NCBI GenBank assembly: GCA_964187785.1 | Contig: OZ076409.1 | Location: 16,742,001 to 16,806,000 of the forward strand | DNA length: 64,000 bases | Direction of reading: 5' to 3' | Origin: Amphiscolops sp. MND2022 | Taxonomy: Eukaryota | Part shown: positions 1 to 44,895 of the stretch, piece by piece | Layout of the letters: the number at the start of each line of letters is the position of its first letter | How positions within the stretch are numbered: the first letter of the stretch is position 1 | Made by a program: the position numbers and the translations under genes | Notes under the pieces: model-generated | Seen by the model: only the letters and a program-made list of their open reading frames with translations | Databases searched by the model: none | What the model was told of the DNA's origin: nothing

Positions 1-3000
1 ATCTTATGAACGCTTACACACGAAAACCTCTTGATGAAGAAACTAATAGACTTAAAAGCTTCTACTGTGGTAATAAACCATTTGCGTTTGTTTTAGGCGT
101 TCATCGTCTCAACCGCTGACCCTATTTTGTTCATAAAACAAATAACTACTTTCCTGGAAACTCTAACAGAACAAGGTTCTGCTCTTGTTTACATTGGCAA
201 CATCCTCCCTTCCCTTGTCACAATCAATATTCGAACTCATTGAACAACTGCATATCACATGTAAGAAAATAGTTTGGAAGTCGCTCCAGAAAAACGAAAA
301 ACCCATAACATTCCAAACCTGCTGTTATTCGTAAACTTCTTTCTTTCGCCGGAAAAGTTATCCTTTGAGTTTTATCGAAGCACTCAACTTTTACACGACG
401 TTCATTGAAAAAATTAATCCTGAAGAATTCTACGATCGATTACTCAAAAACACCCCCTTATACATGGGCTTTTGAACAAAAACTGTTGTTTCAACAAAGA
501 AAAAATGCTTTAACTCTGATACAGAACTTGCAATACCAAATATAAAACATCCATTCGCCTTTACAGTTGATGTTTCCTGAATTGGATTAGGAGCTGTCCT
601 TATCAATTGAATGAAGATTGAACAAATGAATGAAGAAGAACAAAATGAAAGTAATGTCTCACAGCTCTCTTATTTTGAAGCGTCAGGAACAGAAACTCTC
701 AACACTAGAACATGAACTCCTTTGTTTTGCACATGCTTGTCAAAAATGTTTAGTTCTTGGATCTCCACATCCAAATCATAGTTTTACCGATCATGAACGT
801 TTTTTACACTGTTTTACAAAAAAAGGTTACCTCATCCCACGTTTTTAGAGCTCAAATGCAACTCACAAATTACTTGAAACTTAAAGTTGTCCACACACTG
901 GGAAAAACCCTTTTGTAACAGGTAGCACAGGATATTGTTCACCAAAAAAGAACCCGAAATCAATCATATGAAATAGACAACTACGGCCACAAACAGATTT
1001 TGCTTTTTATAAAAAATCACATTTTGAAATTCGTCTTTTATCTGATCAAACACAAAGATCAACATCACCCCAGCCTGACTCTCATCCTATTCTTGCTGCG
1101 TATGGCACAGATCCTTTTGCAAAACGTTTAAATGACACAGGCATTGATATTATTGTCAAACTTTGAGACTCATTTACCTTCGGAGCTGTTACTCTTTCCC
1201 GAACCAAGTTTGAAAACCCTATTTGAAAACACGACCAATTATTACACCAACATTCCCTGCTCCTTAATGACAGTGATTCTACAAGTGACGCTGAAGATTT
1301 TATATAAAATCGAATTCCATGCAATATTACATCTCAAAACCTAAATCAAACAAATTTTGCAACCTTCGGCACTAATGCAAATCCGAAAACATCAACACCG
1401 TCTAGCTTTGTTATGAACAAAACAAACCTATCAAACTCTCTACTGACTTTTCACAACTCATACTCGTCAATGTCCCTTCCTTCTTCGAATACAAAAACAC
1501 TTTTCAAGGTTTCTTCTTACCTGAGGATTGTTCATTGGACTTAAGAACTACCAAACAACAAAAAAGATCCCATCCTCAAAATTCTATATCACTGGCATAC
1601 TAACGTGCCAAACCCGAGTTTCTTACACCTCTAAACATTGGTAACATTATTTTACTCTTATAACAAAGTATTCTCGCAGCTTGCTATCGACGACGCCAGA
1701 AATCTTTTTAGTCTAAATACAAAAAAAATTCTCTTGAAACTAATCCTGAAACCATTCCTATGTCTAATGGAAGTAACATTAAAATGAGTTTTCCATTACG
1801 CATCTTCGAAACTGCAATCAATAAGTTTCATGATCATTAACAAACCAGTTTTAAAAAACATACAATACATTCTCTCACTTTTATTACATTCCATTTTTTG
1901 TTCGCAAATGACTGTCTTGTAGGTAAGCGCAACAAACACTCAATTTGAAAATCCACATTGCTCCCCCTCAATCGTTTTCAGAAAACGCTTCTTCTTTCAA
2001 CTATCGTATCTCTATGGATACGAAGGGTACTATTACCCCATCTTCAGAAAACAAGTCTTACATACACGTCATCACGTCATTGTTGACACTTCAGTCGTTT
2101 CGTTGTAACAGTCTCTTTTCAAATGAAGAACGTCGAAACTGTTTAAAAAACTTTAAACACCATTGGAATGTTCAATTTGGTCCTCATGTATATCTTGTCA
2201 TTGATCGTGTATCGTATCAGAATACATAAATGTTGATATGGCACAACTTTGCACACTTCTGGGTAATAGACATTCGCCTAGAGCACCTGACCCCCCTTGG
2301 ACTAACGGGCTCATCGAAGTTCAACATTGAAATCTTAGTACACATCTTCGAATGTTTTAACAAAACACCCCCTAAAGCATTGTGCACACCAAGTTCACAT
2401 GTATGCTTATGCACACAATTCGCAAACTCTCTCTGCATTCAATGTTTCTCCTCAAATCAATCAAAACCTAGAATTCCACTAACATTCTACAGAAACTTAA
2501 ACCGTATTACCAACAATACTTGTATTTCCAAGTAACGCTCTGAACTACCAGAGCACTATCGTTATGAGGAAACAGTTGTTTTCCCATTCTTCTACCGAAC
2601 ACTCTCTGCACCCCTTCCGCAAAAGTTTTTCCTCGGAGAAACTGCTTTGTAACAATTTTTTTCTGTAGGACAAGATTACACTAATAAAATATCAACTCAC
2701 AAAAGCATATTACTAAAACATACCATGAAAGAAACCATGTACTTCCACTTAGTACTTATGTTCTAAAACCCATGTACCTTTTCGAGCAACCCCAAACCCC
2801 TTCCGATTGGTTCAGAAGACTTGATGGCCTCTCTGATGTTACTAAAGAGCTTCTTTCACAAGTCGGTACTACGTTTCATACACAAAAATTATTTATTACC
2901 CTAATATTAAACAGAACCTCTCTTGTATCCTCGAATTTGAATCTTTATTCGTTTCTCAGACTCCATCAATATTGTCATTCCAAATCCCAAAACGTAAGCT

Positions 3001-6000
3001 AATAGTGATTCATTCTTTTCTAATTCTGATGTTTCCTCATCCGACGATGAATCCTTTTCTCAATTATCTAACAGTTCACTAACCCCAATACAACAAATCA
3101 ATGTACTCGTGACACAACTTTAAATGACAACTCACATTTCAGAACGATTGTAACAACCCATACAACTAATTTTCTTCAAATCGTACTCGTCCCTTATCTG
3201 ATAGCCGTTCATCTCCTACACAAACCCAATTTCAAACTAATACTTCAAACTATAGACATTTGAAAACTGAATACAGTTCGGGACAAAAACCAAGAAACAA
3301 AATCGTGATCTTTTTCAAGTATCTAAAGAATTTGACCTTTGATCATTTAAACCACTATCATAGTCGAAAACAATCAAACCTGACATTGAATGAATGTAAA
3401 AGGTGCTAGCTTATCATCGAAAAAATTTTTGACTCTGGATCAGACATCCTGGATTCTTCTTCATCTCCTTTTGCTCCAAGCTTGCTTGTTCGAACTTCTC
3501 AAAATGTCATGCCCACACATTCTAAACACAGTTTCACTCGAAAGAAGACATTCACTTATTTTAGACATATTTCAAAAAACACCGCAACTACTTCTTCTAG
3601 AACTCTTTTTCCACCTGTTTCTGAATCATCTACTACTGATAGGCAATTCATACTCTTCTGGTCCATATTTCCCACCCACCCAGATTCAGTTGCTAGATTC
3701 ATAAAATACAAACCACAAAATGGGTACTACCAAAACACCTAGGTTTTAAATTACATTAGATATAGTACATGTTCCCGACACAGAATATTATTCTCTACCT
3801 TCTTGACATGGGGTCGTTTACTACTTCACAAATAAATCCTCCTCAAATCCAGTCAAGTCAAAAACCTTCTACTGCCTTATCTACTTTATTAGACAATTCA
3901 TCACAAGAAAAAAAACCATTGCATGAGTAAAGTAGTACACATTTAGTTCCTCACCAAAGAAATACATCGACACTTAACATTTCTGTTCTTTCCAATACTT
4001 CAGCTTACAGTCTTTCAGGACAGTGAGCTAAATCACTTCATTCTGAGACACGTCCTTATGAACTATTTCCACGTTCCCATTCTATATCAGATATAGATAC
4101 TGCTTCAATAAATTCTTCTGACGTGTAGGTCGCATACCTTTCTGGCAGGTTTTTCTCCTAAGCTCTCGGAAGTTCTAGTACCTAACCTAGTTGCACCCAC
4201 TGTAGGACTTGCTGAATATTGTCCCAAAGATCATTCGAGACCTCCTACTCATCTTTTCGCAGACTATCCATTACGTTCAAAAAGATATTGTCTTCCGAGA
4301 GAAATTGAAACAATCCTTCCACTGTATACAGCTTTAACACAATGTACACTGATACCATTGCTTACATGCCTGCTGACAAACAGTGGACTTATGATCGAAA
4401 AAAGAGTCCTCTTCAAAACTGTCCAGCTCTTCACGAAACCGAAATATTCTTACTTTTAGTTTCCCAGGTCGAACTAATCTATCATTATACATCAAATGTG
4501 TTGATTATAGATGAAATTGCATCACCATGTTACAGTGCAGATGGCTTCTGTAAATCTACAACTAAACCCTTTACACTTGTTTGGTTTGTTGTTGATTTTT
4601 GTTTATTGTGCATTCTACAAGAATTTGTTGGCCGTTTGACAAAAATAGAAGACCGTCAATGGATTGAAACAGAGATTTTATACACTCTTCAGTACTAAAC
4701 AAATCTGAATCCCATTCCAAAGAAAAGGCACACCTTATCCCTATATACACGCTCCGCATACACAAAACCCACAAAATCCTTGTCTTCTACGAATTGAATT
4801 TTTTCCTCATGCTCAAACATTTTGTTGTGAACCTGAACATATTCACTTTACACAATATTCCGATCTCATTGTCACATACAAAATAGGTTTTATTATGAAT
4901 ACAGGACATCCGAATCTTCAATTTGTTATCCATAAATATAACTCAGGAAAGTTAGTATTAGACAACTCTAGTGAACATTAACTTTTCCCTGCTCTCATTC
5001 TTCCAAATACTTTCAGTAACAATGACTAAGATGCACACATTGATACCAAAATGGAAAATACCATCATTCATGTTTTTTGTTCAATTGCAACTCAAGAACT
5101 CAATACTCTTCATTTTCACGTGAAATTGAACAAAAACATTTTCTTGCAAATCTCCAAACGTCAGAACAAAACCCGCATTATGCAAGATTCCCTTTCACAA
5201 GAAACCGAAGTTCCGAAGTTTAAAAAAACCGATTTCTTTCATGTCGAAGCCTTGACAGCTTGGCTACACAACGGTTCACAAGTCCCTTTGCCATTATACA
5301 AAGCCGATTGTTGTTCTGATTGCATACTTTTACATTAGATAGATATTTGTATGTATGTACTATGTATGACTATGATATTTTGTATGTATGACTATGCTAC
5401 TTCTATACGCAGTGATGATAATACTCTTACTGTTTTAGAACATGATCCAAACTCAGGCTATCATTACTCTTGCAATTTCCGAACGGAACTTGAAAACAAT
5501 AACCTCCTCGTATGTTTACTCCTTCTCGATTTGAACCTAAAATACGTCACAATAGAGGGACAGCCCAAGATGCTGGTTCAAATGCAGAACTTGACTCGTT
5601 TTGGAACATTCCGACACAGATACAACACTTCACTTACTTCGAAAAACTCTTAGTTATACCTTCATTTTTACTAATACACCTGACAATGATGCAAATTCTC
5701 CTGAAGATAAACCATGTAGTACACTTCGTATTGAACTACATGATAGACGTTTTAGGTTAATTCCACTTTTCACGTCATCATGGTTTTCTGATGCTTTTAA
5801 TTCACTCCTTGGACTTTGGACACTCATTTTACAATTTGACACAACGTGGAATTTATTCTTCTACCCTTCTTTTTGTACAAGCAATATATTATTAACTGGT
5901 TTAATTGAAACACATAAAACCACTTCTTTCAAACATAATCTTCTACAAAATATTACAATTTTCTGTTCTATGCATATGGTTCTTTAATAATCAGCTGAAA

Positions 6001-8300
6001 TAGTCAGGGACCTGAATCATGCTCGTACTACAAAACATCCCTTACCTCCAACCAAAAGTTCACTTCAAATACCCTGGTCAACCATAACTATCAGATGAAT
6101 GTTCTAATCTTTCTGACGATCCATTGGATATCCGAAACTACTCCCTTAATCGAGAAACTAAATTTTATAATACAACTGGCATCACTTCACCACAACCGTT
6201 TTAAACACAATTACCTGTCAAACGATTGCCAAAGAGCTCAGGCTTCAAACTTTTTCCAAAACGTAGATTCCACCCTACAATATACAGATGATTCTGACAA
6301 GTCAAAGACAATACCATCACATTAAACATCACTTTTCCATCATTTTCTCAATTTCCAATCCAAACCCTGACAATTATCTTTCAAAACCTACACTTGAAAA
6401 CGATGAAACTGACAGTCCTGTCAAAATATATCGTAAAACAAATTACTCCTTTCAACCGCCTTCGTTTTAGAACAGGTCATGTCACCTTTTCTCTCACTTG
6501 CAGCACTCAATTTCTCGCCCACTTTAACCAACAACCGAAATTCGTGTTTTCGCATCTCCTGCTAGTACTTCAGATAAAACAACGCTTTAGTTTCTTTCGA
6601 TACACCATGACTCTGGCTCCAAACGTGATCTCCAAACTCAAATAGTTTCACGAATTATTTGCAAAATCACTGATCTCTAAACAACACCAGTATTTGACGA
6701 CACTCCAATTCTCTTTCTCGAACCTAAAACCCTTACAAATGTTTCTACTCATGTCGAACAAATAGAATCTACAAATCTACACTCTCGCATAACTGGAAAC
6801 CTTTGTAATTATGACCCAAACAAATAAGATTACAGTCCACTACCGCACAACAATATATCTAGACAACTCATTGTTCAAAAAGAATTTCTCATACTTTTTG
6901 ACAACGTCTTGCTTCCATGCAACCATCACTGTCATCTTACTGTTTTTGAACACCTCGTTTCTACTCCTCTTGACGGAAAAGATACCTCATATTACACAAC
7001 TTTGTCCAAACAAGGCCATTCATACAACGAAATATTTTCCTTTTTGCCTGAATTATATCCTATATGGTCAAATCAGACAAAATAATACGGAATCATGCTC
7101 ATCACAATTCACACCAGCAACATTCTGACACACACCATCGTGTTCATTCTCCTTAAAAACCACTAAAAAGTTTACCAACGTTTTCCTTTCACCAACTCAC
7201 TCTCCGTGACATCAAACTCAAACTTAAACCTTTAAAAAAGTCATTTGATTCTCCTCTCGCAACTCTCACTTAGATCATAGACTGATACGATTGCACAAAC
7301 GAAATACTAAAATCTCTAGCACTCGACTCTCAACGTACTACACAACATTGCAAAGCAAAACGAGTAGCATTAGGAAACATGAACATACTTTTTCACTCTT
7401 CAAATTTTCTTTGAATTCAAAAGGTAAAACAAATGATACTTATGTTTCTTTCTGATACACTTCAAAACTCCTTCTCAACCAATACTCAATTGAAAGGTAA
7501 CACCATATTTCATTTCAATTTCGGTACACTCTCTTTCCTTTTTGAATAGGTATTTTTTTTCTTATGTCATTTCGACTTTTTCCACTTCTTCTGAGAACTT
7601 GTCTAAAATTGTCACTTTTTCTATACTTCTCTGTTTTTCTACAGCACTCTTCTCAACTACTATTAAGTTTTTCTTTCACAAAAAAAACTTCATACCAAAT
7701 AGCACAAAAAAAACAAAAAAACAAACCAAACAGGCTCTTTCTTTCGATATGATTTAGACACTACTATTCTTCCCTCTCGTTCGACTCATTTTTCGTGGGG
7801 TCCACAATCACAAACTCAACTCCATTTTCCCTGCACAGGCTTTTACAGACATGAACCATTTTTCCTCCTGTCTCATTGCCATTCATGTTTCCAAAATGAA
7901 TTCGAAAAACAAAATGAATGCAACACAGACTGTACTTCTTTCAAAAAACGACCGAATACATTGAAAGCCGCTGTTTTCAAAAATTTAGCCCCCAAATTAG
8001 CCAAGAAATTTAATACTGAATTCGTGCAACTTTCAACTACCAGACCTTTTTTTACGCTCTCATACAACTTCAAAACTTCTACAAAATGAATTGCTTACCA
8101 ACATTACTTCCGTCTTCGTCAAAACGGAACTCAAATTGCCATGTGTGAAAATGTTGGCATTACAGTGTTTGTTCTAGAAGACACTTCGTTTGCAAAGAAA
8201 GACCATTCTTTCACTACAACACTCCAAGAAGCCAAGCATGCGTCGAATGCCGTCCTCGAGGACTTTGGCAATTCTAAACGTCTGAAAAAGTATGATATCA
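1..8300 (+). mobile_element. Degenerate Ty3/Gypsy LTR retrotransposon (pol 3' part, env-like ORF and long 3' region); 5' end lies outside the window
   Basis: Frameshifted motifs in Gypsy order. RT: AYTRKPLDEET...LVYIGNIL (decayed YIDD, ~10-205). RNase H: PFAFTVDVS*IGLGAVL, EQKLSTLEHELL, FTDH (550-800). Integrase: RISMDTKGTITPSS, FGPHVYLVIDR, PWTNGLIEVQ (2000-2330). Right boundary is approximate. Confidence 0.85.
4130..5990 (+). pseudogene. Disrupted env-like glycoprotein ORF downstream of integrase (class III fusogen-like)
   Basis: Cys-patterned fragments in several frames: LIIDEIASPCYSADGFCKSTTKPFTLVWFVVDFC, IEFFPHAQTFCCEPEHIHFTQYSDLIV, D*DAHIDTKMENTIIHVFCSIATQELNTLHF/REIEQKHFL..EQNPHYA, FHVEALTAWLHNGSQVPLPLYKADCCSDCI. 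A hydrophobic C-terminal segment follows (WFSDAFNSLLG...GIYSSTLLFVQ). Start is approximate. Confidence 0.6.
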
Positions 8301-8369
8301 CAAAACCCCCGTCCCAACCTAAAGCAAAACATCACTTTATGACAACTAACTAGATTTTGTAGCATCCTC

Positions 8370-8560
8370 TTTGCAACTTCTTCCTTCTCAGCAGGATTCT
8401 TTTAGCTTTTCTCAACAGACTTTTACAACAGCTTCTTCTCTGCAGACTTCTTAACGCATCTTCTCCGCAAACTTCTGCAGCTTGTCAAAAACTTTTTGCA
8501 GCTTCTTTTTTGAACACTTCTTGCAGCTTCTTCTCAGCAGACTTCTTGCAGCTCCTTGGC
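8370..8560. repeat. Degenerate short tandem repeat (unit about ttgcagcttcttctcagcagacttc)
   Basis: Recurrent gcagcttcttct / gcagacttct blocks across about 190 bp. Confidence 0.7.
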
Positions 8561-8569
8561 AGTCCCCGT

Positions 8570-8772
8570 TGATGACTTGTTCCAAGTCAGAGAATTCGTT
8601 AAGATGGAAGGTTATTGTAAGCGCGTTCTTTTGTTACTAAATGTAACATACAGATTGAGTACAATTTAAAGTGGCAGAAACTTCAGACGTACTATGGAAT
8701 AACTAACTATAAATTGACACAACCGAAATAGTCTAAGTCTAGACCGAGCTTGTCCTCAAGATATACTTCACA
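8570..8772 (-). repeat. 3' LTR of the 8.6-13.8 kb Gypsy element
   Basis: Aligns by eye to 13630-13836 (acttgttccaagt...ttcttttgttactaaat...cttcagac...tataaat...aagtctaga...cttgtcctc...tatacttca). On the minus strand it is preceded by a purine tract (gcggagtgga) and starts with TG. Confidence 0.7.
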
Positions 8773-11700
8773 TCCACTCCGCGATTGGACAAAAGTTGGC
8801 CATCGGGGGGAGTCGGATCTTCTTTATGGCGGTTTTCCGTCCATAGTTCTTCTTTTGTAATTTTTCCTGAACGCTCCCGTCGTGATGGTGACTGCTTCGT
8901 ACCTCGGGGTTTTGGTTTATTCCCAGTAGTTTTCCAGGTTTGTTGCTGACTTGTTTGTTCGATCATTCAGCTTTTTGATGATATTCCCTGTAATCAGACA
9001 GTACCGGGTTGTTCAGTCTAACTATAGGGTTTGTTTTCGTTGAGCGTTTTGATCTACGACGATTAGTTTCTTTGGCGTCCTGTTCTATTTCTGTGCTTGA
9101 GCTTAGGTTCCTGAGTAGTTCTTGTTCGGATGTTTCTAAGTTATTCGTTTGACGCCCATACATGCCGCCCATGTCATTACCGGTACTTCTAGTACCGATG
9201 AGTCTTGGTCGGTGTCCGACCGAGTCTCTCCCTCCTCCAATGGAGTGTACTCTTGGTGCGTTTGCGGCGTTGACGGTCGCAGTTCCTCATGCGCTGGCTG
9301 TGCCGCTCTGGGCGGTCAACTGTCCATTGTTCTTGTCTTCTCAACTATTCGGTTTGTTTTTTTGTTTTTAGCGTTTTGATCTACAGTTTGTTGTTTTCTT
9401 TGGTCTCCTGTTCTACTTATGTGCTCGAGCTGAGGCTAGTGAGTAGTTCTATTTCGGAGGTTTCGAAATTATTGTCTAAGTCTTCTTTCTTTTTGTAGAA
9501 AAGATAAATTTCCCTACCGTTTGTAGCTTCGATGTGTAGCTCAGTGTTTGCATTTTTGGCGTCCTCGATGATAGGGTCTATCTCCGTATCTGTCATGTGT
9601 TGGGCCGTTATGATGAGTAGGCCGATACTGTCTTGGTTTTGGTTCGATTGTATGGGGGAGCCTCTCGGTGAACCAAAGCTTTGTCTGTTCTGGATTAGCT
9701 TCGGCCGCCCGCTTCCAAACACCTCAGTCATTTTATGTGGCTGGCCCGGTGATGTTGGTGTTTTCTCAGTTGTTGTTATGATGTCCAGTTGTTGTGTGGA
9801 TGTTTGGTACCCAGAGTTGCTCGGTAAACTAGAGTCGCTTGGTAAACGGGCTGTCTGGTCCACGGAGCCCGGTCCCCCTGTTGTTCGGCACCTCTACAAA
9901 TTTAGAAACGGGTTTAATTTTTTTTTCTGGGTCCTTAATTTTAGATGTTGTCTCTAATTTTGGATGTTGTAATTCTGTGTTCATTGCCCGATATTGTTAT
10001 CTGTGGTTTATCGGAATATACACTATCAAACTTAGGTTACTAACTCCAATTGCCTGTTTCTGCTGTTTCAACGGTAGCCGATCAGAGGCACCGCCAGCTC
10101 CGGTGAATGAGTATACTTTTAAGGTATAGTATTATCCGGTTTTGGTGAAATAGAATTTTTTGTTATTCCTTTCAGTTTATCGATATATAACCTTTTACTG
10201 ATCTCGGCATTTGAATGGCGGCCGTAATGCACTTTAAAAGGCTTTACATGGACTACACCTACCTTGATGTTCGTCAGTAAAATTTCGTTCAGTCTTCGAT
10301 CGACCAATCCTGTGAGAGTATGTTTATACGGCGACCCCTTTATGAGCTTAATGTCACTTTTTTCACAAAAGTCCCTGAACTTCCTATTCGTAAATGCGGT
10401 AGCTTTATCCGACCTGATTGTTTTTGGGATGCCGTTTAGGTTCATGTATTGTTCCAAAAAACAAACTTACAAAAACTTACCGCCGGGGATTTACTGTACT
10501 GATCCATGGAAACTAGAATGTAGATTCTACGGCTCTTTTCCGTGTTTGAACCAAAGAAATTCAATCTCTTTTCCTCTTGCGGTTTTTAAGTGCCAATCAA
10601 ACTGTTAGAAAGTGTTTTGTTTCCGTATTATGTATATTAGGTTTAGGACTCTTATATTAGGTTCAGAATTCTTCGTTTTGCTTGGTGACGTATTGGATAC
10701 TGCAATGCGTGGTGATTGGTTGAAATAGTTGCTACGGCAAAAGTATTTAGTCACGACTTTGTAGTGCGGTATGATGTTATTGATCACGTATTCTTCTTCG
10801 TATACGTCATCCCCTTCTGAAAGTGAGGACGGATTTTTGCTCAGGTTGTTCGTTAACGCTAAGTTTTTACCAGCTATATGGCCTACGTTACTTGAAAAGG
10901 AAAAGTGCGCTAACCGGTCAAGCCATCTCGTTAGCCGTGCGCTCGCTGGACGTCTTTTTTCATCGGTAACGTTTAGTTATTGGTTTTAATGTTTCGTGGT
11001 CCGTGAGTAGCTGAATCAGTTTACCGTATATACAAAGAGGGAAGTGTTCCAGTCCTCATACGACTGCTAATAGTCCTAATTCATTCTTTGCTTTTTTCCG
11101 TGTCAGAGAAAAATCGAATGGCAAGTCCGATTGGTTTTATGTTACTATCCGGTTGTTCTTGCCAGTGTGGCGCCCTGACCTCTCGTGCTCTCGTTTCTTG
11201 TTATTAGGTTCGGGTAGTTTGAATTAAAATATGCCGGACACAAAATATCCGTGATTTTTTGTTTTCAAATTGTCGATTTCTTCGGTATGTTATTCTGTCA
11301 AATTCCAGAGATTATCTTCTCCCAATAATTGTCTCAAGATGTCTGTTTGGGCTGAAAGCTTCTCAAAGGATTTGGACAGCTATTGAATTGCGCCTAGGAA
11401 CGACTTTAATTCCTTTTCGTTTTCCAGTCTTTCCTGTGCTCGTTTAGCCAGCAGTTTATCTTGCAACGGTCCGATTCCGTTCTCATCTGTTTTATGTCAG
11501 ATCCATTCAATTTTTGTCTGGAATATTTCAAATTTTATCTCGCTCAGTCTAGTCCGGCGTTTTCCGGTTTTGTCAATACGTCTATCAGTTCGTCCATCTG
11601 GTTTTGTTTTGAAGCTTTTGTAACCGCTATAATATCGTCTAACACGGCTAGGTATTAATTTTCCAGCGTCTGATCAAATATCTGATTCTTGAAATATCGT

Positions 11701-19766: not shown

Positions 19767-22700
19767 AAAGGGCTATTATAATGACATTTTATTGGAGAAT
19801 GAGCAATCAGTGGGGAATTTGCACTTGAACGAATATGTAATCCAGAATTGATTCTGTATATGTGAGAGTAATGGATAGTCGTTTGATAAAGGAGAGGTAA
19901 ATGTTGTAACAACAAATTGATCTTTATACTGATCTTTGAACTGTAATATGAACTTCTGAATGTTAATTTTCTGAATATTTTATTCCAAGAAGGGAATACG
20001 GAGAAATTTGTGTTTGTTGTTGGCATATGCAAAAATCATTAGAAACTGGCGATAGATGCATTAAGAACGATAGTTACATCTTGTAATTTCCGCAACGGTC
20101 AATGTGTTTGAAACATGGTTTGCTTCATCTTTGAGAGGTTTGCTGAGACGTTTCGGAAGTGTAAATTAAATAGGATAACTAGGAACAACAGTGAAAGCAC
20201 CACTGTCTAACAAGAAAGATTTCTCTAATTCTGAAGGGTGATTATGATCATTGTGTCTTTGAGGAGTTTGTGAATACTAGGAGTAAAAACATTTTGTAGG
20301 TGTGAGATGTTTTGCGTTTTCAGTAGGTTGTATTAGGTATTTCAAAATTTATAGGGGTAGTAGATGCTTCTGTTTATATGGTGTTAACTTTGTTTGCAGT
20401 AACCGTGTGTGATCGAAATCTAGAGCTTCTAGAATCGTTTGGTCGTGATGGAGGTTTTAAAGAAGTCGTGTAGCTTTGAAATGATATGTCTATTGGAAAT
20501 GAACGTGATCTATACCACGGACGGGAGTCACGTCTATAGGGTGATCTAGGAAAGGATCGATAAGGTGAACAGTATGAGCAAGAATCTCCTCTGTATTGGT
20601 CATATCTGGATCGCGTGTTTCGTAGAGGAGTAGTATATCATTCATAATTGTACAGGTGTCTAGAATGAGAGCGAAGTTGTTTTTGTGGTGAAGAGTTTTG
20701 AGTTGTATATCTGTGGCATAATGTACTTCGACTTCGATAACGATTAAAGTGTTCAGGTGGTCAAATATCAGTTCTTTATTATGAGTTGTAATTGTCACAA
20801 GAAAAGGAACGAAAATATTTGCTTTTTGCATTTGCTTCACGTTTATGTTCATCACCTCAATTTTCCGAAGACGGTGGAATTGAACAATTCGTTCTATGAG
20901 AGTTTGATCGTTATTTTTCAAATGCAGGTTTTTGTATGTTATTATGGTCTCGTGGTTGTGTAAACGTACACGTTGATCAGGTTTTGATGTTTCTAAAGTT
21001 TGAATTTGTGATTGAATTATAATGTTATTGACGTCAAGAGTCAGGTCATGCATACAAACTTCATCATTTGCTTTGTCTTCAGTATCGACCAATTTACCAA
21101 GTGTGTAAAAAGGTATTGGGGGTTCTGGAGTAGTAGAAGTGTGTTTGACTTGTCTTCTCCTTGCAACATTTTAAAGGTTCCTAGGAAGTTTCTTCGAAAA
21201 ATTTCTAGAATTTTAAAATAATGCCTCAGCCTCGTTCAACTAGTTGTTGAACTTTTACTGCAAAATGGCGTACTGTTTCAGTGTCTTTTTTGACAAGAGT
21301 AAGAGCTTCAACTTAGTCACAGTTGGGCTTTTTATTTAAAACAACTTTATTAAAAAGTGTCATTAGAACCATTGTACCAATTGCGTGCTGTACCAGAAAG
21401 CCTACATTGTATGCAAACCATACGCCTGGCGTTCCAAGCTTTGTATTCTTGAGGAATTCAAGGTTGGAGTCCTAAGAAAAAAGTCATATGTGCCTCAATC
21501 TGTTATAAATAATCTTCCGATGTTTAATTGTGACCATGACTATCGCGAATGGTTTGATGGGTTCTGAAGCTGCAGCAGAAACGTTTATAAATGACGAATT
21601 TGCGACTGTAGTTAAAAGTACTGAAGACGGATACCTTGTTTGTTAGTTTATGTTTGAAGTATTATCCTATACTTTTTCTGTATTTGATTGAGTTTGAAAA
21701 GTAGAAGATTTAACAAGAGGAAAAGTTCTGATAAAAGAAATTTGTTGTACTTGAACGTTGTTTTTTTTTCAGTTGTGGTCGATGGAAGAACAGAAGAGTT
21801 AGATGAACAGACTGGGTTTATAGTGGAAGTAGTTTTTGTCTGAGTTTTTTCGTATTGAAAGATAAATTGATTGTTGTGTATTATATATATCTATACTGGT
21901 CAAATTGTTTTATAGAGGGTTTGTAGTGATTGGCAAAAACTGAATTGGTGGTCTTAAAAGGCGCTAGAAGTTGCAATATTCAAAGGTGGATTTGTATGTG
22001 TAATACTAATTGTAAAAACATCTGTTTTTGTAGAAGTATTTGTATTTTGTGCTTGTGTGAATGGTGAAGTGCTCAAAGCAGGTTGTCGCTAAGGAGTGAA
22101 TGATTGAGACTGGGATTGAATTTTTTCGAGTTTTGGTATTTGGTACTTGAAGAGCAAAGGGACCTGGATGGGGGGAAGAATCAAGTTTGAAAGTGTCAGG
22201 TTGTGGTAGAGTATCATACATTTCGAGGAATCAATTGTTGTTTTTGAAGTAACGGATGTGTTATACTTGTGTTTGTTATAAATTGTACACATGAATCAGT
22301 TTGAGAAGTCTTATGGTTGTCTTTTTATAATATTGGTTTTGCAGGAACTAACAACATTTTCGAGTTGAATGTAAGGACTATATTATGAGTATCAATGCGA
22401 GTGTTTTCAGGAATAATTTCAGCTTGTGTTAAATTATAAGTAAGTGTTTTATCTGGTTCCGACAAAAACACAAATTGAAAGCTAATTTGGACTTGTTGTA
22501 GTGGTAACGGTTGTATTTTTGCTTTTTTTCTGGGTTTTGGATGAGAAGTTTTTTGTTCGAAATGTTGTACGACCTTGTCAGTTCGCGTCAGGGTATTTTG
22601 AGACATAAAGATAGTATTTATGTATGTTCAACTGTCAGACGTTTCAGATTGTTAAGTTATGAAAGCATTTTCAATGTAATAATTTTAGAATTGGGGCGTG

Positions 22701-23420
22701 TAGTTCTGTAGGATTTCGATATGATTGATTTTTAGATTGATCGTCGAAAATGAAAGGTAGGAGTTCTGTTTCAACGAGAGATTGAGATATGTTTATGTAT
22801 GCTGACTGATCTTGTTGTACACATATTTATTCGTAGTTGAGTTGAATCAAACACATTCCAATTAAATATGTGAGGATACTTTCACTTGGGGTCCTGTGTC
22901 TTCAAGAAGTTTGTCTATTTTAGAAGAAACTGTATTGGAATTGTATGGTTTGTAAAATACCTTGTTGTAACTAATGATCAGGTTTGCTGCGTTATTTTAG
23001 CTGCTCAATTTTGTATTGCAATGTCATCATGTGTATCTTTTGGATTTTCTAAAAGGGAACAGAGAAATTCGATATAAAAGGTTGTGTAGATTTTCTTTGT
23101 GTTCAGAAAACATCGATAGATTTGTATTGTAGTTACGTTATTTAAATGTAATATATCTTATTTTGGTGTGTGTTTCTGTGGTTAAATATGCTATTGAATT
23201 GTTTAGTATACATTGGATATCTTGTTGGATGTTTTGTCCAAGTTACGTGGAAGTGTTGAAAAGGTTTTCTTGAATGTAAAAAGTAATATAAGTGGAGATT
23301 AATACATAAATAGTATTGTACTATAAAAGTAGAACTACGTTTTATAAGTAGAAAAGAGTTTTGGATGTGTTTCAACTAAGAATTGAGTTAAACCTAGTGG
23401 CTAGAACCAAGTCTACGCGC
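19767..23420 (-). mobile_element. Degenerate Ty3/Gypsy gag-protease region, probably the same G-poor family as 1-8300
   Basis: Minus-strand protease motif HPSELEKSFLLDSGAFTVV (~20180-20240), preceded by an Arg/Ser/Tyr-rich segment (20490-20635). Base composition mirrors the 1-8300 element. Truncated by the gap. Confidence 0.7.
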
Positions 23421-23444
23421 ATGAATTGCTGAAGAGCACTTTTC

Positions 23445-23620
23445 AAAACCAACACGTATCGCACGCCTGCGGATGGAACGATGACAAAAACCAACACTTA
23501 TCACTTGTCAGTAGTTGGAACGGAAAAAAATAACCAACACGAATCACTTTGTAGTGGTTGGAACTGACGGAAACTACACTGAAGAAGGCAGTCAGAACCG
23601 GACCAATACGAATCATCTTT
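23445..23620. repeat. Degenerate ~43-bp tandem motif (accaacacgaatcac...gttggaac), 3-4 copies
   Basis: Motif at about 23448, 23490, 23533 and 23602. Confidence 0.55.
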
Positions 23621-24756
23621 CTGTGAAAAATGGTTGGAAGGGTAAACAGCGGTAGAAATTGAAAAGCGGAAGAGAGACAGTATGTTGAACAAAGAAAACC
23701 CAAAAACATCACAAAAAATTTCGAAAGTTCTGTTTTATTTTATTTCGAAAGTGTGCGAAAATTTTGAACCAGGAAAAAACCATGTTCATCTAAACATCTT
23801 CAATCTTTTTCGTGTCTCAGTGTTCTTTTAGAACTATTTAGCCATGGGCCTTTACTCAGGTGAACAGCATTGTCCCATAGATCAGTAAACAACGACCAAA
23901 CTTCAAATATCACATCATACACCAGCCACATAAGTGACAAGTGGGACCGAACGTTTAGCGACTTTAATCCGCGCGCCATTACTCAGTTTTATGGAAACGA
24001 ACCTTCTAGTGCCCATCGAATTAACCTTGGTTACTGACACAAAAACGCCCAAGCAGCCTTGGGCATACCTTAGCACTAAGCAAGAAGTTTTTACTCACCC
24101 CGCAACGAGAAAAGCGTTTATATTAGGAAATTTCCCCAATCAGGAAACGACCCAAATGTAACTGAGCTCTTTTGCACTTCAATACGACACTTAGTCACAA
24201 TTGATTGGGGTTGAAAAACGTGGCGGATGTTTTTCAGTTTCGGGTGACTCCGTTGGCGTTTTGTTCACGTACTCATATCTTGCGTCGATTATGGCCTCTA
24301 CTGACAGGCCGTTTCCCTTGGTTTTTTCAACTCAGAGTCGCATGTTTGCTTTCGATTAAGGATAAGGACTTCGAAACGAGTAGTTCAGCCGCAATGTAGT
24401 TACGAGTTTGCAGTTTTGCTCTGCTTCCAAGATGCTTCTCCAGAATTATACAGCTAATTAACCGGTGTTCCGTTCCATGTCTGACAAATCTGCTTTGCTT
24501 TCTTGTACTTTCCTCAATGGACTAAAGTGTAGTCGAAAGATGACGTAGAACTTAATAACGATTAAGATCTCAGATCTTTCTTGCGAACCGTTCTGGTCAT
24601 TTCCAAGATAGCGGTTTGGTCAGTGGCCCATACGAATATATCTGTTAGTTCCTTTTTTAATGTTCACTGTTTTGTGAAAAGACTTTTTAGCAGGTTTGTT
24701 TTCGTGGATGTGTCTATATGCATGGTCAGTTTCACGCAGTGTGTCTTTTTAATTTG

Positions 24757-26201
24757 AGTATGCTAAAACTGGTAAAACAAACATGATGATAAAAAGTCGA
24801 GTTTTCTGCGTTGTTCCCGAATTGTAATTAAACAGACATAACACTAATTTGCATTTTGAAACTGCAATTAAGTAATAAAAAAACATTTGACCTATTCGAT
24901 TTTTTAGAATAGACTCAGACAACGGTTTGAATCTAACCAATTTAGACTTTGTTTCATAATTTTTTGTTCAACGTTATTTTAAAGGTCAAACTTTAAAGTG
25001 AAAGTATCACTGACCTTATTGTATCAACTAATTAAACTGCAGTATTTCATTACTGTAACTGCAACTGACTTGCATGGCTCATATTGGGGGATTCAAAACA
25101 CTCACGCCAAGACGGGGGATTAACAGAAAAGAACCTAATGCCTTTTCAATTGATACTTTAGTCTCGCCATCGAGCCGAGCCATGTAAACGTAATTTGGTC
25201 TATCGCTGTATCTACATCTGCGGACTGGCCAATCGCAGTATGCTAAAATTGGTAAAACAAACATGATGATAAAAAGTCGAGTTTTCTACGTTGTTTCCGA
25301 ATTGTAATTAAACAGACATAACACTAATTTGCATTTTGAAACTGCAATTAAGCAATTAAAAACCATTTGACCTATTCGATGTTTAAGAATAGACTCAGAC
25401 GACAGTTTGAATCTAACCAATTTAGACTTTGTTTCATAATTGTTTGTTCAACGTTATTTTAAAGGTCAAACTCTAAAGTGAAAGTATCACTGACCTTATT
25501 GTATCAACTAATTAAATTGCAGTAATCCATCACTGTGACTGCAACTGGAATGCATGGCTCATAATGGGGGATTCAAAACACTCACGTTTAATACGAGGGA
25601 TTAACAGAAAAGAACCTAATGCCTTTTCAATTGATACTTTAGCCTCGCCATCGAGCCGAGCCATGTAAACGTAATTTGGTCTATCGCTGTATCTACATCG
25701 GCGGACTGGCCAATCGCAGTATGCTAAAATTGGTAAAACAAACATGATGATAAAAAGTCGAGTTTTCTGCGTTGTTTCCGAATTGTAATTAAACAGACAT
25801 AACACTAATTTGCATTTTGAAACTGCAATTAAGCAATTAAAAAACATTTGACCTATTCGATGTTCAAGAATAGACTCAGACGACAGTTTGAATCTAACCA
25901 ATTTAAACTTTGTTTCATAATTTTTTGTTCAACGTTATTTTAAAGGTCAAACTCTAAAGTGAAAGTATCACTGACCTTATTGTATCGACTAATTAAATTG
26001 CAGTATTTTATTACTGTGACTGCAACTGAAATGCATGGCTCTTAATGGGGGATTCAAAACAGTCACGTTTAAAACGAGGGATTAACAGAAAAAAACCTAA
26101 TCCCTTTTCAATTGATAATTTAGTCTCGCCATCGAGCCGAGCCATGTAAACGTATTTTGGTCTATCGCTGTATCTACATTTGCGGACTGGCCAATCGCAG
26201 T
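24757..26201. repeat. Tandem triplication of a 480-481-bp unit
   Basis: agtatgctaaaa(c/t)tggtaaaacaaacatgatg starts at 24757, 25237 and 25718. The units are highly similar with scattered substitutions. Confidence 0.97.
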
Positions 26202-31746: not shown

Positions 31747-31852
31747 CAACTCGTTGGTGGACGACCCGGTCTAGAAGATGACGACTCGTTGGTGGACAAC
31801 TGAGAAGATTGCCCGAGAAGAACAAGTGTCTGGATCTTGGAGTGTCTGATTT

Positions 31853-32009
31853 TGTGTCTCTGGGAGTTTGGGCTATTGTGACTCTGGGAGATTGGGCTAC
31901 TGTGTCTTTGGGAGATTGGGCTATTGTGTCTCCTGGAGATTGGGCTACTGTGTCTCTGGCAGATTGGGGTATTGTGTCTCTGGGAGATTGGGCTATTGTG
32001 ACTTGGGGA
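31853..32009 (+). repeat. 24-bp tandem repeat, about 6.5 copies (tgtgtctctgggagattgggctat)
   Basis: Units start at 31853, 31877, 31901, 31925, 31949, 31973 and 31997. Confidence 0.97.
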
Positions 32010-35000
32010 ACTGAGTTCAACCAAGAAGAGAAGAGATGGCTCAACCTAAACGGTTCGATATCAACAAAACGGAAAATTTCCTGAGGAAACGTTTAGTTAG
32101 TGGATTGCAGCGATCGAGCACCGTAAGACTAATAAAGAAATTGATGAGAACCTGGCTAGCATTGTTGACGACAAGCAGATAGCAGAGTTACTACTAAGAC
32201 GAACAGATGCCATAAACAGGAAAGAGCGGCTCATTAAGGCAGTCGAAAATGCAATCAAAGTAAAGTACCAACCGCAGATACCCGAAATGTTCTCATTAGT
32301 GAACAAAGCAATGCCGAGCCGATTGGTTGAGTTGCAGCAGCAAAGCTCTAGCATTGAAAGGATTAAAAAAACTGATGTCAGCATTGCAAGATGAAAATCA
32401 GATACTAAACTACTTGAATCTGGAAGGAGAGAAACGTGCTATTGATGAAATTCAATCGCAAATAGCGAAGTTGTCGACGATGAAGATTATGCTACAACAT
32501 GTCAAGAATTGCTGCAAAAACAGTTTGACATCAAAACAAAAATAGAAGCTCTGCTGAAGATAGGAGACGGGGCAGCCATTTTGCAAGGTCTTGAAGACGC
32601 TGAAGGAAGACGAGCAGAAGCTCGTGTGAACTCGGCAGCAGACAAATCCATTAAAAATGGTTATTCACCACAAAAGGAACTGAAACCAGACAACGAAAGA
32701 CAAAACCTCGATGGTCACAACGCAGATGAAAGACAAAATTCAAGAAATGAAGCATTGCAAATAGAAGAATTGAGTTTAGATTCGCAAGGTGACAAAACCA
32801 AAAGCAGCAAAACTTCTATGTTTTCGAGAACGTCAAGTGTAACACGAGTTCTTGATTTGGAATTGAAAGAACTACAAACCCGCCAGGAGAAACTCCGACG
32901 AGAAGCAGAAGAAATTGAGATAGCTGGCTTGCAAGAGGAGTTGGCTCGCAAAGCTAGAATAGCAGAAAAGAAAATAGAAAGAGCACAGGTGTCAAGTAAT
33001 TGTGGGTCTAGCTTCCGAAGTATCCCACAGGTCGGGGCTCCAGACGAAAACTTGACAAAAGTCTCAGGATGGATGAACAAAACACAAGAAGCTGAAAAGG
33101 TGGCTCCGCCCATCAACGTGCCATCAGTATACCAGCAAACGTCCGTCACAACACCAGTGATTACAGTACGGTCAACGCACGGAGAACAATGCTCCGCGCA
33201 AATGAGGGACTTGAAACCCTCAGTGCAGTCGACCATATCGACAGAAGCCGTTGTGCAAGATAGTGGAAGGAACAGAACAAAGACTGTCATAGGTGCTGTC
33301 AGTCAAAAAGCAACAGCACAACCAGAAATGAAATTCGCCATATTAAAGCAGTCAATGACCCTTATGGCAGGCCAAAGCTAGATACCACCTACGAATTGAG
33401 GAAACCCGAGTAGTGCATTTCAAGTACCACAGTTCACGAACGCGCAGAAGCAGTAATGCCAAGTCAAGGGCAAAACTTTGCCTCAAATGCAAGAGATGAC
33501 TATTTCATCAAATCTAATTTTCCAAAGCTAAACTTGTCAGAGTTTTAGAGTGACCCCTTAGAATAACCAGAGTGGTCTATTCCAAGCAACTGTCCACGCA
33601 GCGAACATGGACTAAAGTGTAAAGATGAATCACCTGAAAACCATGGTCACAGGCAAGGCCCAGGAGCCAATTGCTGGCTTGGGGTACACCGCTGAGAAGT
33701 ACAATGTGGCGTAGAAAATGCTAGTTTGAATCTTTGGAAAACGGCAATTGGTTGTGAACGCTCAGTTGAAGTGAATCTATTTGTTTCCACCTATGAAACT
33801 ATATGAAGGAGTCGTTTTGATCAAGTTTGCGAGAATAGTGTCGAGTTGCGTGAATGTTTTGACACAATTCAAATACATGGGCGACCTAACCTCAAAGGGA
33901 GTTCAGGGAAGCGCCACAATAAAGTTAACACTGGAAATTGAAATTGAAGTGGCTGACTTATGTTAAACAAAAGAACCTGTATCAACCTGGACTTGCTGTG
34001 TTCAGTGAATGGCTAAATGATACAGCAGAAGTGCAAGATGAACTGATTACGTCTTCAAACTCGAATGCTGACCGCGCGAAATCGAGCTACATGGAAAAGG
34101 CCGGAGGCTCCACGCTTGCAACATCAGCAACAAACCCAGCAAAAGACAATTCGAAGAACCAGAGCGAGTGTATGTTGAAAGACGGCAATCATCCCAAGGG
34201 GAAATGTGAAAAATTCAAGAAGAAGAACGTCGAAGAAAGAGGACAGAAGGCAATAGAGTTGAGAATGTGCTTCAGTTGTTTGTCAGACGCACATCGGATG
34301 AGACGTTGCTCTGGTAGACAATGCGATGTAAGTGGTTGGGGGAACCTCATCACAAATTGCTACATCGACCATACAACAACGTGGAACAAAAACAAAACGT
34401 TGAAAATGTCGAGAAGGTCTCTAACCTGTCCTTAAAAATGAGAAGCAGTGGTGTGCTTCCAGTCGTTCTAGTAACGATTCGAAGTGGAAGCAAAACTCTG
34501 AAAACGTTTGCTTTGTGCGACTCTGGAGCTAGTCTTTCGTTTGTGGACAAGGGTCTGATGAAAACGCTAAATCTGACGGGCCAACTAGTGGATTTGAATG
34601 TTGCAGGGATTCATGGAACGTCAGATGTCAGTAGCAAAAGACTTCGAATCAACAGTTTTGGTCAAGAAGGAAAGGTCAATGAAAACATCACTGTCTATAG
34701 TCATCCTAATGTGAGCGCGGGGATTTGAACGTACAACTTCAAGAAAGTGAAGGAAACATACCATCACATGTCAGTTTTGAAAGATTTTACCATCAACTTG
34801 GGAGATGTGAAAGTCATCTTCGGACAAGATTGTTGTCACTTGCACAGAGGAACAGAATGTAGACAATGTGGAAACGCAAAGCCGTGGGCAGTGCGAAAGA
34901 AGCTGAGAAGGATGCTCAGTGGACCCTTACCTCAACAAAAAGTGCGAAAGTTGCAATCAAAAGTTTCTACGCAGCAGAATTGGACCCATTAGTGGGTCAA

Positions 35001-36937: not shown

Positions 36938-37582
36938 CTGCCCTTCGTTGAAGCCGACGACTATTTATTTTTTGGGATTGTGTTCGGATTATTGTCCCTT
37001 CGCGTTCCCCTCTTGTCTTTGATAGTGAAATCTGAGCTCCAGAGACACCAACAGAACCAAAATCAGCAACCATTGGTGCATGGGGCCCAAAAATAACCGG
37101 TCCCAGTTGTCAAGAATTCGGTGGTTGAGACAAACATCCTTGTGCGAAAAAATAGGAGAAACAGTACCGAATAACACACAAAACCTTGTCCGTCTCTGAA
37201 ATCTCAATGCAGATCCTGACGAACGTACGAGTAGATTAAATTCCAGGGCGCAAACGATGAATATTCATGAAAGACTTACCCGCATGTTTACTTTCATTTC
37301 ACCGAGACAATGTTTTGTCAACGCTTCGCCAGAATTGAAGCTGAGGTCTTCAGTAAATCATAGACTATCCTCATAAAAGAGATTAGACTAGCGATTCAAG
37401 GGACACACGATGTGTTCACTCCACGCATCAAACTCGCGCAATTCTGCAAGTTTATTTACTTTTCCCACAAGGCTCCAGTCGAAGAAAAACATTTGTACGT
37501 AGTTGCAGCAACTGTAAGTGACTATTGTCACTCAGACGCGTAAAATCAACGAATTACCGTTATCAACTACTGTCATGATGAC

Positions 37583-42966: not shown

Positions 42967-44439
42967 ACATATAATCAAATTTGTAAATATATATATATAT
43001 ATATATAGAAAATATATATTTATATATCAACTTTATATCTTCTTTGTATATTTTCTCTCACACTCTACACCTATTGAGCAAACTGATCCTGATAATTATC
43101 TTCCAACCTCCAATGACCCTGACACTATGAATCTCATGGCTTCCCATCTTGCCATTATGACTATGAAAATAACCATGACTTAAAACATTTCAACCTCTTA
43201 AGCGTTACACAATCGACAGAAACTCAAAAATATGACATTCGAGTGTTGAGGCCCGGGTTTTTGTCATTGCATAATCTAAACGTATCAAAATTTTCAATTG
43301 TGAATCTGTTTTCAAGGCTCTGAAAAATACAATCGCGTAGATAGAATAGTTTGGAACCAAAATACATTATTGCCTTCTGTTAGTCTTGACCCCTTATAAT
43401 GTAACAACCTTAAAAGACATCTCAATGGAACAAACAATAACATATTGAACGTATTGAATAACTTTCATTACAATGGAAGGTTTTTCTTTTTTAGACCCAT
43501 ATTTCCATTTTCAAACCCCATTGACAGTTTACAATTTTTTTACTATGTACACTGGTACTTTTAGGTAGATGCCAAACAAAAAAGAACGGCTTTTTGATCC
43601 TTTAAAGAATTCTTTTCATAACTGCCCTGCATATCACGAGTTTGAAGAGAAACTACTTAGTGGGAGACATATAGTAAAAATTAGTAATGTGAACTGACAG
43701 CAAACGTTATGGTTATAGATGGACATAGATTACCACGTTAATTGCAGATGCTTTCTGCAAACTAAGGCCAGCATAAAATCAAGCGCGTGAACAAGCGTGA
43801 TTTTCTAGCCAATCAGAGCGCTTCGTGTCATGTCGTGATTTTTGAACGGATTATGATTGGCGGAATTTGAAATAACAATTCTCTAATATTCTACAAAATT
43901 GAATATTATAGAACAATGAAAGGAACTAGAAAATGGCGTACAATGACAGTTGTGAAGTGATCTGAGCCACTTGATTGGTGAAATGAAACTACAGTTTCTA
44001 TACTATATTACTATTTCTTCCATTCAAAATTACATACTACAAAATTCAGTCTGAACTGTACATCATTGATTAGCCCTAACTGTTATAACAATTTTAAATA
44101 CTCTGTTATTTTCTAAGATGTTTGGTATTTTCGGCTAGAAATGGATCAAATTTCTGTTTCTGAAGAGGTATTGAAAAACCGGAAAATGCTTCATTCGACA
44201 CAATTATCAGCAAAATATGGAACAAACAACAAATTGTGAACACACTGAAAAAGTTCCAGCTGGACTACAACAATGATTTTGCTCCAATATTTTGTCCGTG
44301 ATTTTTGCGTGAACTTCAAATAACAAAAGCGTGAATAAGTGCGTGATGTTTGGGCATATTCGGGCGTGATTCGTTGCTGGGACTACAGCAAACATACAAT
44401 TCAAACTCTCGTACTCTTGTTTGATTCAGCAATGGCTTT

Positions 44440-44895
44440 TATTAATTCTTCTACAGGGTTTTGTAGGCAGAATGACAAAAATTGAAGAACGTAAATGGAT
44501 AGAATCTGACTCATTTATACTCTTCAATTCCAAAGAATTGTGAAACCACTTGAGGCAAAAAAGGAACACCCTACCTTTATATAAATGCTCCACGTACACA
44601 AAAACTACAACATCCTAGTCCTTCTGGTTTTGAACTCTTTCCCCATGGTCAAACTGTTTGTGGTAACTCTGAAACTCTTTATTCTACACTTTACTCCATT
44701 CTCTTTGCAACATACAAAGGTTTGAATATGAATACAGGATGATAGAATCCCCATTTTGATATCAGTGAAAATATCTCAGGAAAGGTGGTATTAGGCAATA
44801 CAAAAAATCAATTTACCTTTCCTGCTTTCAACGGATCAAACAATTTTGCTAATATTGATTATGATGCTCTTATCATAACAAAAAGAGACTATGTG
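44440..44895 (+). pseudogene. Second, diverged fragment of the env-like glycoprotein ORF
   Basis: Colinear with 4610-5055: LQGFVGRMTKIEERKWIE vs LQEFVGRLTKIEDRQWIE; FELFPHGQTVCG vs IEFFPHAQTFCC; NIDYDALIITKRDY vs ND*DAHIDTKMEN. Confidence 0.8.

Follow-up and report, generated by a model that had tools for sequence, protein, structure and literature searches.

The 64,000-nucleotide stretch of the Amphiscolops sp. MND2022 genome analysed here (contig OZ076409.1, positions 16,742,001 to 16,806,000 of the forward strand; hereafter the window) carries, on the plus strand and downstream of the remnant of a Gypsy integrase, a decayed coding region resembling the gene of a viral envelope glycoprotein (env). 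This raises the question of whether a Ty3/Gypsy retroelement has acquired a class III fusion glycoprotein of the type found in chuviruses and herpesviruses (gB), and whether such an element belongs to the past of this genome or to its present. The analyses described below lead us to consider it very probable that the window holds an old, truncated copy of a Ty3/Gypsy lineage whose 17.7-18.9-kb members encode a class III env, and that this lineage spreads in the way that we propose.

The env remnant in the window occupies positions 4315..6467 of the plus strand and corresponds to codons 202-899 of the 911 codons of a natural env copy (tblastn, E 2.5e-129, individual pieces of at most 191 bits). 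This match is not due to chance; 20 triplet shuffles of positions 4130-5990 reached at most 22.3 bits. The Pfam signal came from the natural copies only; a search with 12 fragments of the window gave nothing significant. Translation and tblastn place the env motifs in the order given by the original prediction: C..GFC..W..C, FFPHAQTFC..TQYSDLIV, D*DAHIDTK..QELNTLHF, then, in a changed frame, EIEQ..QNP and HVEALTAW..PLYKADCCSDCI, and lastly, from about 5781, the decayed remains of a hydrophobic stretch. For the first motif (4528..4602, plus strand) a spacing of C-x5-GFC-x8-W-x5-C had been given; it actually reads C-x4-GFC-x10-W-x5-C, and its cysteines (277, 284 and 302) are invariant in all seven natural env proteins aligned. 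Instead of the single open reading frame (ORF) of about 1.8 kb that had been described, alignment to the natural copy revealed five matching segments, which are spread over three frames and contain in-frame stops. The span first assigned to env, 4130..5990, is correct from 4315 onward; however, positions 4130-4276 belong to another gene, ORF2, and the match runs on to about 6467. Between the two genes lies a deletion junction (4277..4314, plus strand; blastn connects L034:8650 to window position 4276 and L034:9542 to 4314), at which about 0.85 kb of natural sequence, comprising the end of ORF2 and the first ~200 env codons, has been lost. Because the env remnant starts at codon 202 of 911, the N-terminal part with its signal-peptide-like stretch is missing. 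What is left of the membrane-proximal helix and the transmembrane-like segment lies at 5781..5900 (plus strand), where it aligns with the hydrophobic peak at residues 716-734 of natural env and is interrupted by a frame change.

The same copy retains parts of the other genes, all on the plus strand. A decayed pol remnant with reverse transcriptase (RT), RNase H and integrase in Gypsy order occupies positions 1..3009 (tblastn with residues 1407-2452 of natural gag-pol, 33-78% identity per piece) and extends about 740 bp beyond the start of the window into the protease/RT start (upstream neighbour, L033:9263-9996). ORF2 is represented by positions 3449..4276, with tblastn matches of 3826-4276 to ORF2 residues 146-305 (E 2e-12 and 2e-8), and ORF4 by positions 6780..7405, which match its residues 268-480 (tblastn, E 1e-32). 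No long terminal repeat (LTR) of the window copy was found, and its DNA is about 66% identical to young copies of both subfamilies A and B described below. The window copy is an old, truncated relic of a Ty3/Gypsy lineage, with the 5' part of its env deleted.

The lineage has recently multiplied in the window's own genome (G000, 1.07 Gb), as at least four subfamilies (A-D). In subfamily A, detected with a 129-residue fragment from the window that matched at least 150 places, 100 of the 149 scored matches other than the window itself have open env frames of at least 909 codons, and these are 61-63% identical to the window. Searches with related proteins detected subfamilies B, C and D, for which counts made by eye gave open frames of at least 916 codons in 107 of 134 scored matches (B), of at least 906 codons in 48 of 68 listed matches (C), and stop-free env in 38 of 53 scored matches (D). 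The tallies for the four subfamilies are lower bounds drawn from the best candidates, and the 5,341-11,495 first-look candidates returned by the genome searches should not be read as copy numbers. Thus, the search for intact copies recommended by the original prediction yielded hundreds of open env frames, and its description of the element as "once potentially infectious" understates, in the word "once", the youth of the family.

We fetched 18 copies (eight of A, three of B, four of C and three of D), chosen from the top matches with long open env frames. Each of the 18 is flanked by a pair of LTRs of 268-419 bp with 98.7-100% identity, and all 18 carry pol, an ORF2 homologue, env and an ORF4 homologue between them, which confirms the predicted linkage of env to Gypsy pol within the same LTRs. 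A 4-bp target-site duplication was clear in 16 of the 17 testable copies. The layout is LTR, tRNA primer site, gag-pol, ORF2, env, ORF4, LTR, with an additional ORF5 in subfamily C. The primer site, TGGTGCGAC, matches the 3' ends of the tRNA-Met(CAT) and tRNA-Val(TAC) genes of the host, and gag-pol forms one frame of more than 2,550 codons that is broken in several of the fetched copies. The lineage was present in two of 20 evenly spaced 10-kb stretches of the genome, covering 7.5% of their bases; with 20 stretches only, the 95% interval on the stretch count is 1-32%, and the lineage may make up several per cent of the host genome. Two features of the genomic setting were also observed. The env of subfamily B recurs at an exact spacing of 18,204 bp, three times on C9 (G000:C9:7863075-7900349, L050-L052) and at least five times on C659, which reflects either tandem element arrays or assembly artefacts, and one copy of subfamily C lies inside a tandem array of ~105-bp units (L068:1-1726, L070:3593-10000).

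The backbone of these elements is that of Ty3/Gypsy (Metaviridae), as judged from the Gypsy-type domains in their order, the paired LTRs, the target duplication and the primer site. The Pfam families in gag-pol follow the order Retrotrans_gag, RVT_1, RT_RNaseH(_2), Integrase_H2C2, rve and SH3_Tf2-1; no Pfam match to a protease was obtained in gag-pol, and visual inspection showed a D-S-x-A motif between gag and RT. Elements of the BEL/Pao group are marked by a BEL-type gag and by RNase H/peptidase A17 domains. None of the 11 and nine Pfam families matched by the two scanned gag-pol proteins is of BEL type, and we therefore rejected membership of that group (Anakin or Tas type). It was also observed that a region of ~450 residues rich in S, P, T and Q precedes the capsid domain in the gag-pol frames (L034, L029, L068 and others), and that G is markedly scarce on the plus strand of the element (GC skew of -0.23 to -0.44 over window positions 1-8000).

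Several lines of evidence support the proposal that env encodes a class III fusogen resembling chuvirus G and gB. The env proteins of all four subfamilies matched PF24664 (Monjiviricetes_fusion) above the cut-off, with E values of 9e-22 to 2e-27. An AlphaFold2 model of a natural ectodomain, built from a 50-sequence alignment, has a mean predicted local distance difference test (pLDDT) value of 73 and a predicted template modelling score (pTM) of 0.51, and shows a helix of 45 residues as well as an N-terminal part rich in beta structure. In a Foldseek search of the PDB with this model, herpesvirus gB accounted for all 32 matches listed (from ranks 1-50, with gaps; best E 1.8e-11), and the top eight matches in BFVD were glycoproteins of chu-like, xinmo- and qin-like viruses (E 1.5e-25 to 2.5e-23); a chu-like G was matched with an E value of 5e-25 and a probability of 1.00. 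Thirteen of the 14 ectodomain cysteines are invariant across seven proteins, three of which are only 28-33% identical. The signal-peptide-like and transmembrane-like segments sought in natural env correspond to hydrophobic peaks at residues 23-41 and 716-734 in P0151, with similar peaks in P0152 and P0174 (hydropathy only; Kyte-Doolittle value 1.56 at residues 716-734). Taken together, these data show env to be a type-I-membrane-protein-like, chuvirus-G/gB-like class III fusogen, with predicted fusion activity. Membership of the insect errantiviruses, whose env is F-like (baculovirus/paramyxovirus type) with a furin site, was rejected, with no F-type Pfam or fold match among those listed and no furin-type site (R-x-[KR]-R) in any of the five env proteins checked.

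Relatives of this env are numerous and unnamed. A profile-free search gave 2,150 relatives at an E value of 0.001 or better, the full-length ones among them being 27-36% identical, and the best 120 of 186 hits in a homologue search were all ENA proteins without a name; the best 120 homologues of env, like the best 120 of ORF4, are 55-99% identical to the query. None of 10 env-homologue clusters contained a named member, and a sequence search of the PDB gave no match at E 10. In the JGI metagenomes and IMG/VR, none of 38 and neither of two pattern matches, respectively, was confirmed as an env relative, in a search that reaches close relatives only.

The comparison of the subfamilies gives an indication of how long these genes have been together. 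The ratio of nonsynonymous to synonymous substitution rates (dN/dS) was calculated according to Nei-Gojobori with one copy per subfamily. Between A and B, for which dS is 1.1-1.3, dN/dS is 0.063 for the env ectodomain, 0.343 for the env tail, 0.172 for ORF2, 0.148 for ORF4 and 0.077 for pol; the values for A-C and B-C (0.16-0.47) cannot be relied on, synonymous sites being close to saturation. The identities for the A-B, A-D and A-C pairs are 94%, 77% and 74% for RT, 81%, 60% and 52% for env, and 70%, 43% and 41% for ORF2. RT and env show the same nesting (A with B, then D, then C), with which ORF2 agrees; ORF4 is less clear. Thus, env, ORF2 and ORF4 are kept by purifying selection and have diverged together with RT, so that their association with pol is a long-standing one.

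Based on these results, we propose that the element is copied by reverse transcription and inserted by its integrase, and that env would place a gB-like fusion trimer on the particles, allowing them to pass from cell to cell, as Drosophila errantiviruses pass from soma to germline. On this proposal, env would be conserved because it lets particles pass between cells. Some of our data weigh against it. The whole-chain TM-scores to gB are 0.23-0.33, with root-mean-square deviations of 15-27 A, and TM-scores range from 0.23 to 0.52 over the best matches; such values would be expected for a long multi-domain monomer, yet they are a real limit, as is the pTM of 0.51. The putative fusion-loop region (model residues 76-88) has a pLDDT below 50, and the hydropathy peaks behind the signal and transmembrane segments are modest (1.5-1.8). 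Furthermore, the sample of 18 copies is biased towards young ones because they were picked from the top env matches.

Two other explanations were considered. It is conceivable that env no longer serves cell entry, and that the element spreads within germ cells with env, ORF2 and ORF4 as passengers or in another role, for instance receptor interference. The broken env frame in about one third of the scored copies would fit such a situation. However, the gag-pol frames are likewise broken in many fetched copies, so that the breaks reflect decay after insertion; moreover, the env ectodomain has a dN/dS as low as that of pol, and all four recently expanded subfamilies have retained env. We therefore regard a loss of the entry function as improbable. 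Slightly less improbable, though still unlikely, is a separate capture of the kind favored by the original prediction, in which env was taken up recently from a chu-like (Monjiviricetes) RNA virus and does not descend from an ancient gB-type errantivirus env. It is true that the glycoproteins of such viruses head the BFVD matches, but the identity of env to viral glycoproteins is only 11-15%, and full-length homologues with the same cysteine pattern, 27-36% identical, exist in other assemblies. In addition, env and RT have co-diverged over four subfamilies with synonymous sites near saturation, and any capture must therefore be old. Passage between cells by means of an env long associated with the element remains the explanation that we favor.

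A further question is how ORF2 and env are expressed. ORF2 is rich in S, P and T and contains no methionine at all in its 418-489 codons in any of the four subfamilies. Judged from similar S/P/T-rich stretches elsewhere in the elements, about 1% methionine is expected, which gives a probability of about 0.01 per subfamily for finding none. The 1,265-1,733 nt between the pol stop and the env ATG are poor in ATG (observed against expected: 3 vs 13.3, 4 vs 11.0, 1 vs 9.8 and 4 vs 11.7), at most one in 300 shuffles being as low, and no depletion of the control triplet CAT (the reverse) was found in the first copy of each subfamily. With the protein kept fixed, out-of-frame ATGs were as few in 1 of 1000 shuffles for C and in 16 of 1000 for D, and the remaining ones open just 1-17 codons; in 12 of 13 control ORFs, by comparison, out-of-frame ATGs were as many as, or more than, in their own shuffles. 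Near the ORF2 start, subfamilies A-D and the window have an in-frame CTG-GAT with an A at -3 and a G at +4, a strong context for initiation. The counterpart in the window lies at position 3449, in frame with an open stretch at 3410-3742. CTG is the rarest leucine codon (1.8% of 958), and among 196 aligned leucine pairs of A and B only two have CTG in both, namely the one near the ORF2 start and another within the overlap of ORF2 and env. Upstream of the CTG near the ORF2 start, the frame is closed by a stop at a distance of 18-24 nt in A, B and C, without an AG in between. Read-through or frameshifting from pol into ORF2 was rejected because the two are separated by anything from 64 to 324 nt, with differing frames.

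It therefore seems somewhat more plausible to us than any other route that ORF2 is initiated at CUG and that env is reached by leaky scanning on a subgenomic RNA. In this scheme, which we hold with less assurance than the passage between cells, the RNA would start after pol, the conserved CUG would be read first, giving ORF2, and ribosomes scanning past it would reach the env AUG through the AUG-poor stretch; ORF2 and ORF4 would be accessory proteins. Errantiviruses and retroviruses usually produce their env from a spliced RNA, and this route is a serious, though less probable, alternative: ORF2 and env would each come from spliced RNAs, as in complex retroviruses, with the ORF2 exon joined to an upstream exon that carries the AUG and the lack of methionine being partly chance in a low-complexity protein. 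CAG or TAG after pyrimidine-rich runs is indeed present past the pol stop (A, B and C) and inside ORF2. Other observations speak against CUG initiation as well. The four subfamilies are related, so that their probabilities of zero methionine are not independent; out-of-frame ATG depletion is not significant in A (224/1000) and B (113/1000) once the protein is fixed; and A, B and D retain two or three short upstream ORFs inside ORF2. The CTG codons share one MAFFT column in A, B and D, not in C, and pairwise local alignment places them in one column for A-B only, whereas in D the frame is open upstream of the CTG and contains splice-like AGs. On the other hand, splicing does not readily account for the frame of A, B and C being closed just upstream of the CTG without an intervening AG, and subfamily C has no AG at all within 120 nt upstream of it. 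No splice acceptor directly before each start codon is common to all four subfamilies, nor is there an acceptor-like AG at a common distance before the env ATG in all four. Splicing would also leave the kept rare CTG codon and the AUG-poor stretch unexplained, as well as the contrast with the 12 of 13 control ORFs that show no such shortage of out-of-frame ATGs.

CUG initiation followed by leaky scanning would have precedents. It has been shown experimentally that Rice tungro bacilliform virus has a non-AUG first ORF followed by ~900 nt without AUG, its downstream ORF being reached by scanning, and that lentiviruses use dicistronic vpu/env or rev/env RNAs on which env is translated second (PMC5902531). 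The plan deduced from sequence for the present element is similar. A literature search for CUG initiation in env-containing gypsy retrotransposons found general reviews and no matching paper.

The other extra ORFs give fewer clues. ORF2, ORF4 and ORF5 had no significant Pfam match, ORF4 had no usable match in Atlas, and the best 120 of the 680 ORF4 homologues are all ENA proteins without a name. ORF4 has about 430-500 residues in natural copies, in which a KK(K/R)Y motif is followed by a conserved core of ~270 residues and the C-terminus looks helical; inspection by eye gave the impression of an SH3/Tudor-like barrel in the core. With its basic motif and folded core, it may act in the nucleus on element RNA or on host silencing or chromatin, by analogy with CERV of the C. 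elegans element Cer1 (PMC10309623); this is a guess, which we consider a little less likely to be right than wrong. In subfamily C, the S/P/T-rich ORF5 of 308-313 codons lies between ORF4 and the 3' LTR in all four copies (L067:1027-1950; equivalents in L064, L070 and L073), and the LTR ends in TA, not CA.

The pairing of a Ty3/Gypsy element with a gB-type env had been presented in the original prediction as undescribed, and its contrast with the F-type env of insect errantiviruses implied that Gypsy elements use only that type. Neither point is supported, as Chary & Hayashi (eLife 2026, PMC13524379) have reported gB-type env on Ty3/gypsy elements across invertebrates; thus, the main claim is not new. 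Their finds were made partly with the glycoproteins of Anakin-type BEL/Pao elements as baits; they favor an ancient association and several Gypsy lineages, and leave open whether gB-type errantiviruses form enveloped particles. The family described here is a gB-type errantivirus according to their operational definition (an intact, multi-copy element with Ty3/gypsy POL, GAG and an env-like fusogen); the window copy is not. Their elements and ours have in common LTRs that enclose a Gypsy gag-pol and, after it, a gB-like env, a tRNA primer site, many near-identical copies, conserved cysteines, a furin site that is not kept, and a glycoprotein related to the Chuviridae-like env of BEL/Pao elements. 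On the other hand, our elements are 17.7-18.9 kb long versus at most 13.3 kb from LTR to LTR in theirs (75 of 1,512 table rows, many without LTR coordinates), and in ours two extra conserved ORFs flank env. Their prefilter for non-insect genomes was 1,000 nt, less than our pol-env gap. The terms "accessory", "splice", "non-AUG" and "acoel" do not occur in their main text and Xenacoelomorpha are not in their genome list, and the host group may lie outside the coverage of the survey.

Similarities to other systems are also partial. The mosquito Anakin-type elements carry a Chuviridae glycoprotein (Dezordi et al. 2020, PMC7642597) and thus have a glycoprotein of the same family (PF24664-type, gB-like) on an LTR element, but their backbone is BEL/Pao, in contrast to the Gypsy-type pol domains found here. 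The G proteins of Monjiviricetes (chu-, xinmo- and qin-like) and herpesvirus gB share with env the class III fold and PF24664; they are 9-15% identical to it, and the env described here is encoded by a retroelement and ends in a long cytoplasmic tail that is rich in S, P and T and less strongly selected (A-B dN/dS 0.34). That LTR elements can carry additional ORFs, between pol and env or downstream of env, is generally known (PMC6431247). The planarian element Burro, described in the same source, is likewise an oversized, high-copy Gypsy element with env homology and accessory ORFs; however, it is >30 kb long, its env lies in frame between gag and pol, and it has BIR, BCL2 and ankyrin domains, whereas ORF2 and ORF4 of our element match nothing. 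The layout gag-pol/ORF2/env/ORF4 was not found described in the literature searched, which was mostly non-subscription, and further rows or figures of PMC13524379 may hold similar elements. We put forward only tentatively, as a possibility that falls short of probable, that the family represents an undescribed, expanding lineage of "complex" gB-type errantiviruses, with two accessory genes without known relatives and an env that is second on an AUG-poor RNA, after a conserved CUG-initiated ORF.

With hundreds of young copies with open env and four co-diverging subfamilies, this is a good genome in which to ask whether gB-type errantiviruses form enveloped particles. If our reading of them is correct, the accessory ORFs and the CUG/leaky-scanning route would mean that a retrovirus-like complexity has arisen in a Gypsy lineage. 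It should also be noted that surveys that limit the pol-env gap to 1 kb can miss elements of such a layout.

Other traces of the lineage are present in the window. Decayed env sequence of the lineage occurs a second time, as a separate fragment covering codons 38-457, at 43052..44892 on the plus strand (tblastn, E 9e-34 and 2e-20; direct repeat D14), with an interruption at about 43735-44460 and accompanied by decayed pol pieces at 41632-42622. The decayed 5' part of another copy, from the leader and gag to the protease, was observed on the minus strand at 19775-23695. Fragments at 10119-10976 (minus strand) resemble, by eye, the RNase H and integrase of a different LTR element.

The window further contains a tandem duplication of ~3.75 kb (33845-41016; 92-97% identical) and tandem repeats with 481-bp units (3-4 copies) and 24-bp units at 24629-26201 and 31811-32033. 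Its only open frames of at least 230 codons are those at 32449-33381 and 48520-49563 (310 and 347 codons). Finally, the mitochondrial COX1 gene (L046, G000:C1929) speaks, according to the established code tables, against a vertebrate, ascidian, echinoderm, rhabditophoran flatworm, cnidarian, ctenophore or sponge as host: its AGA/AGG codons stand for Ser, ATA for Met and AAA for Lys, which corresponds to the invertebrate code (table 5).

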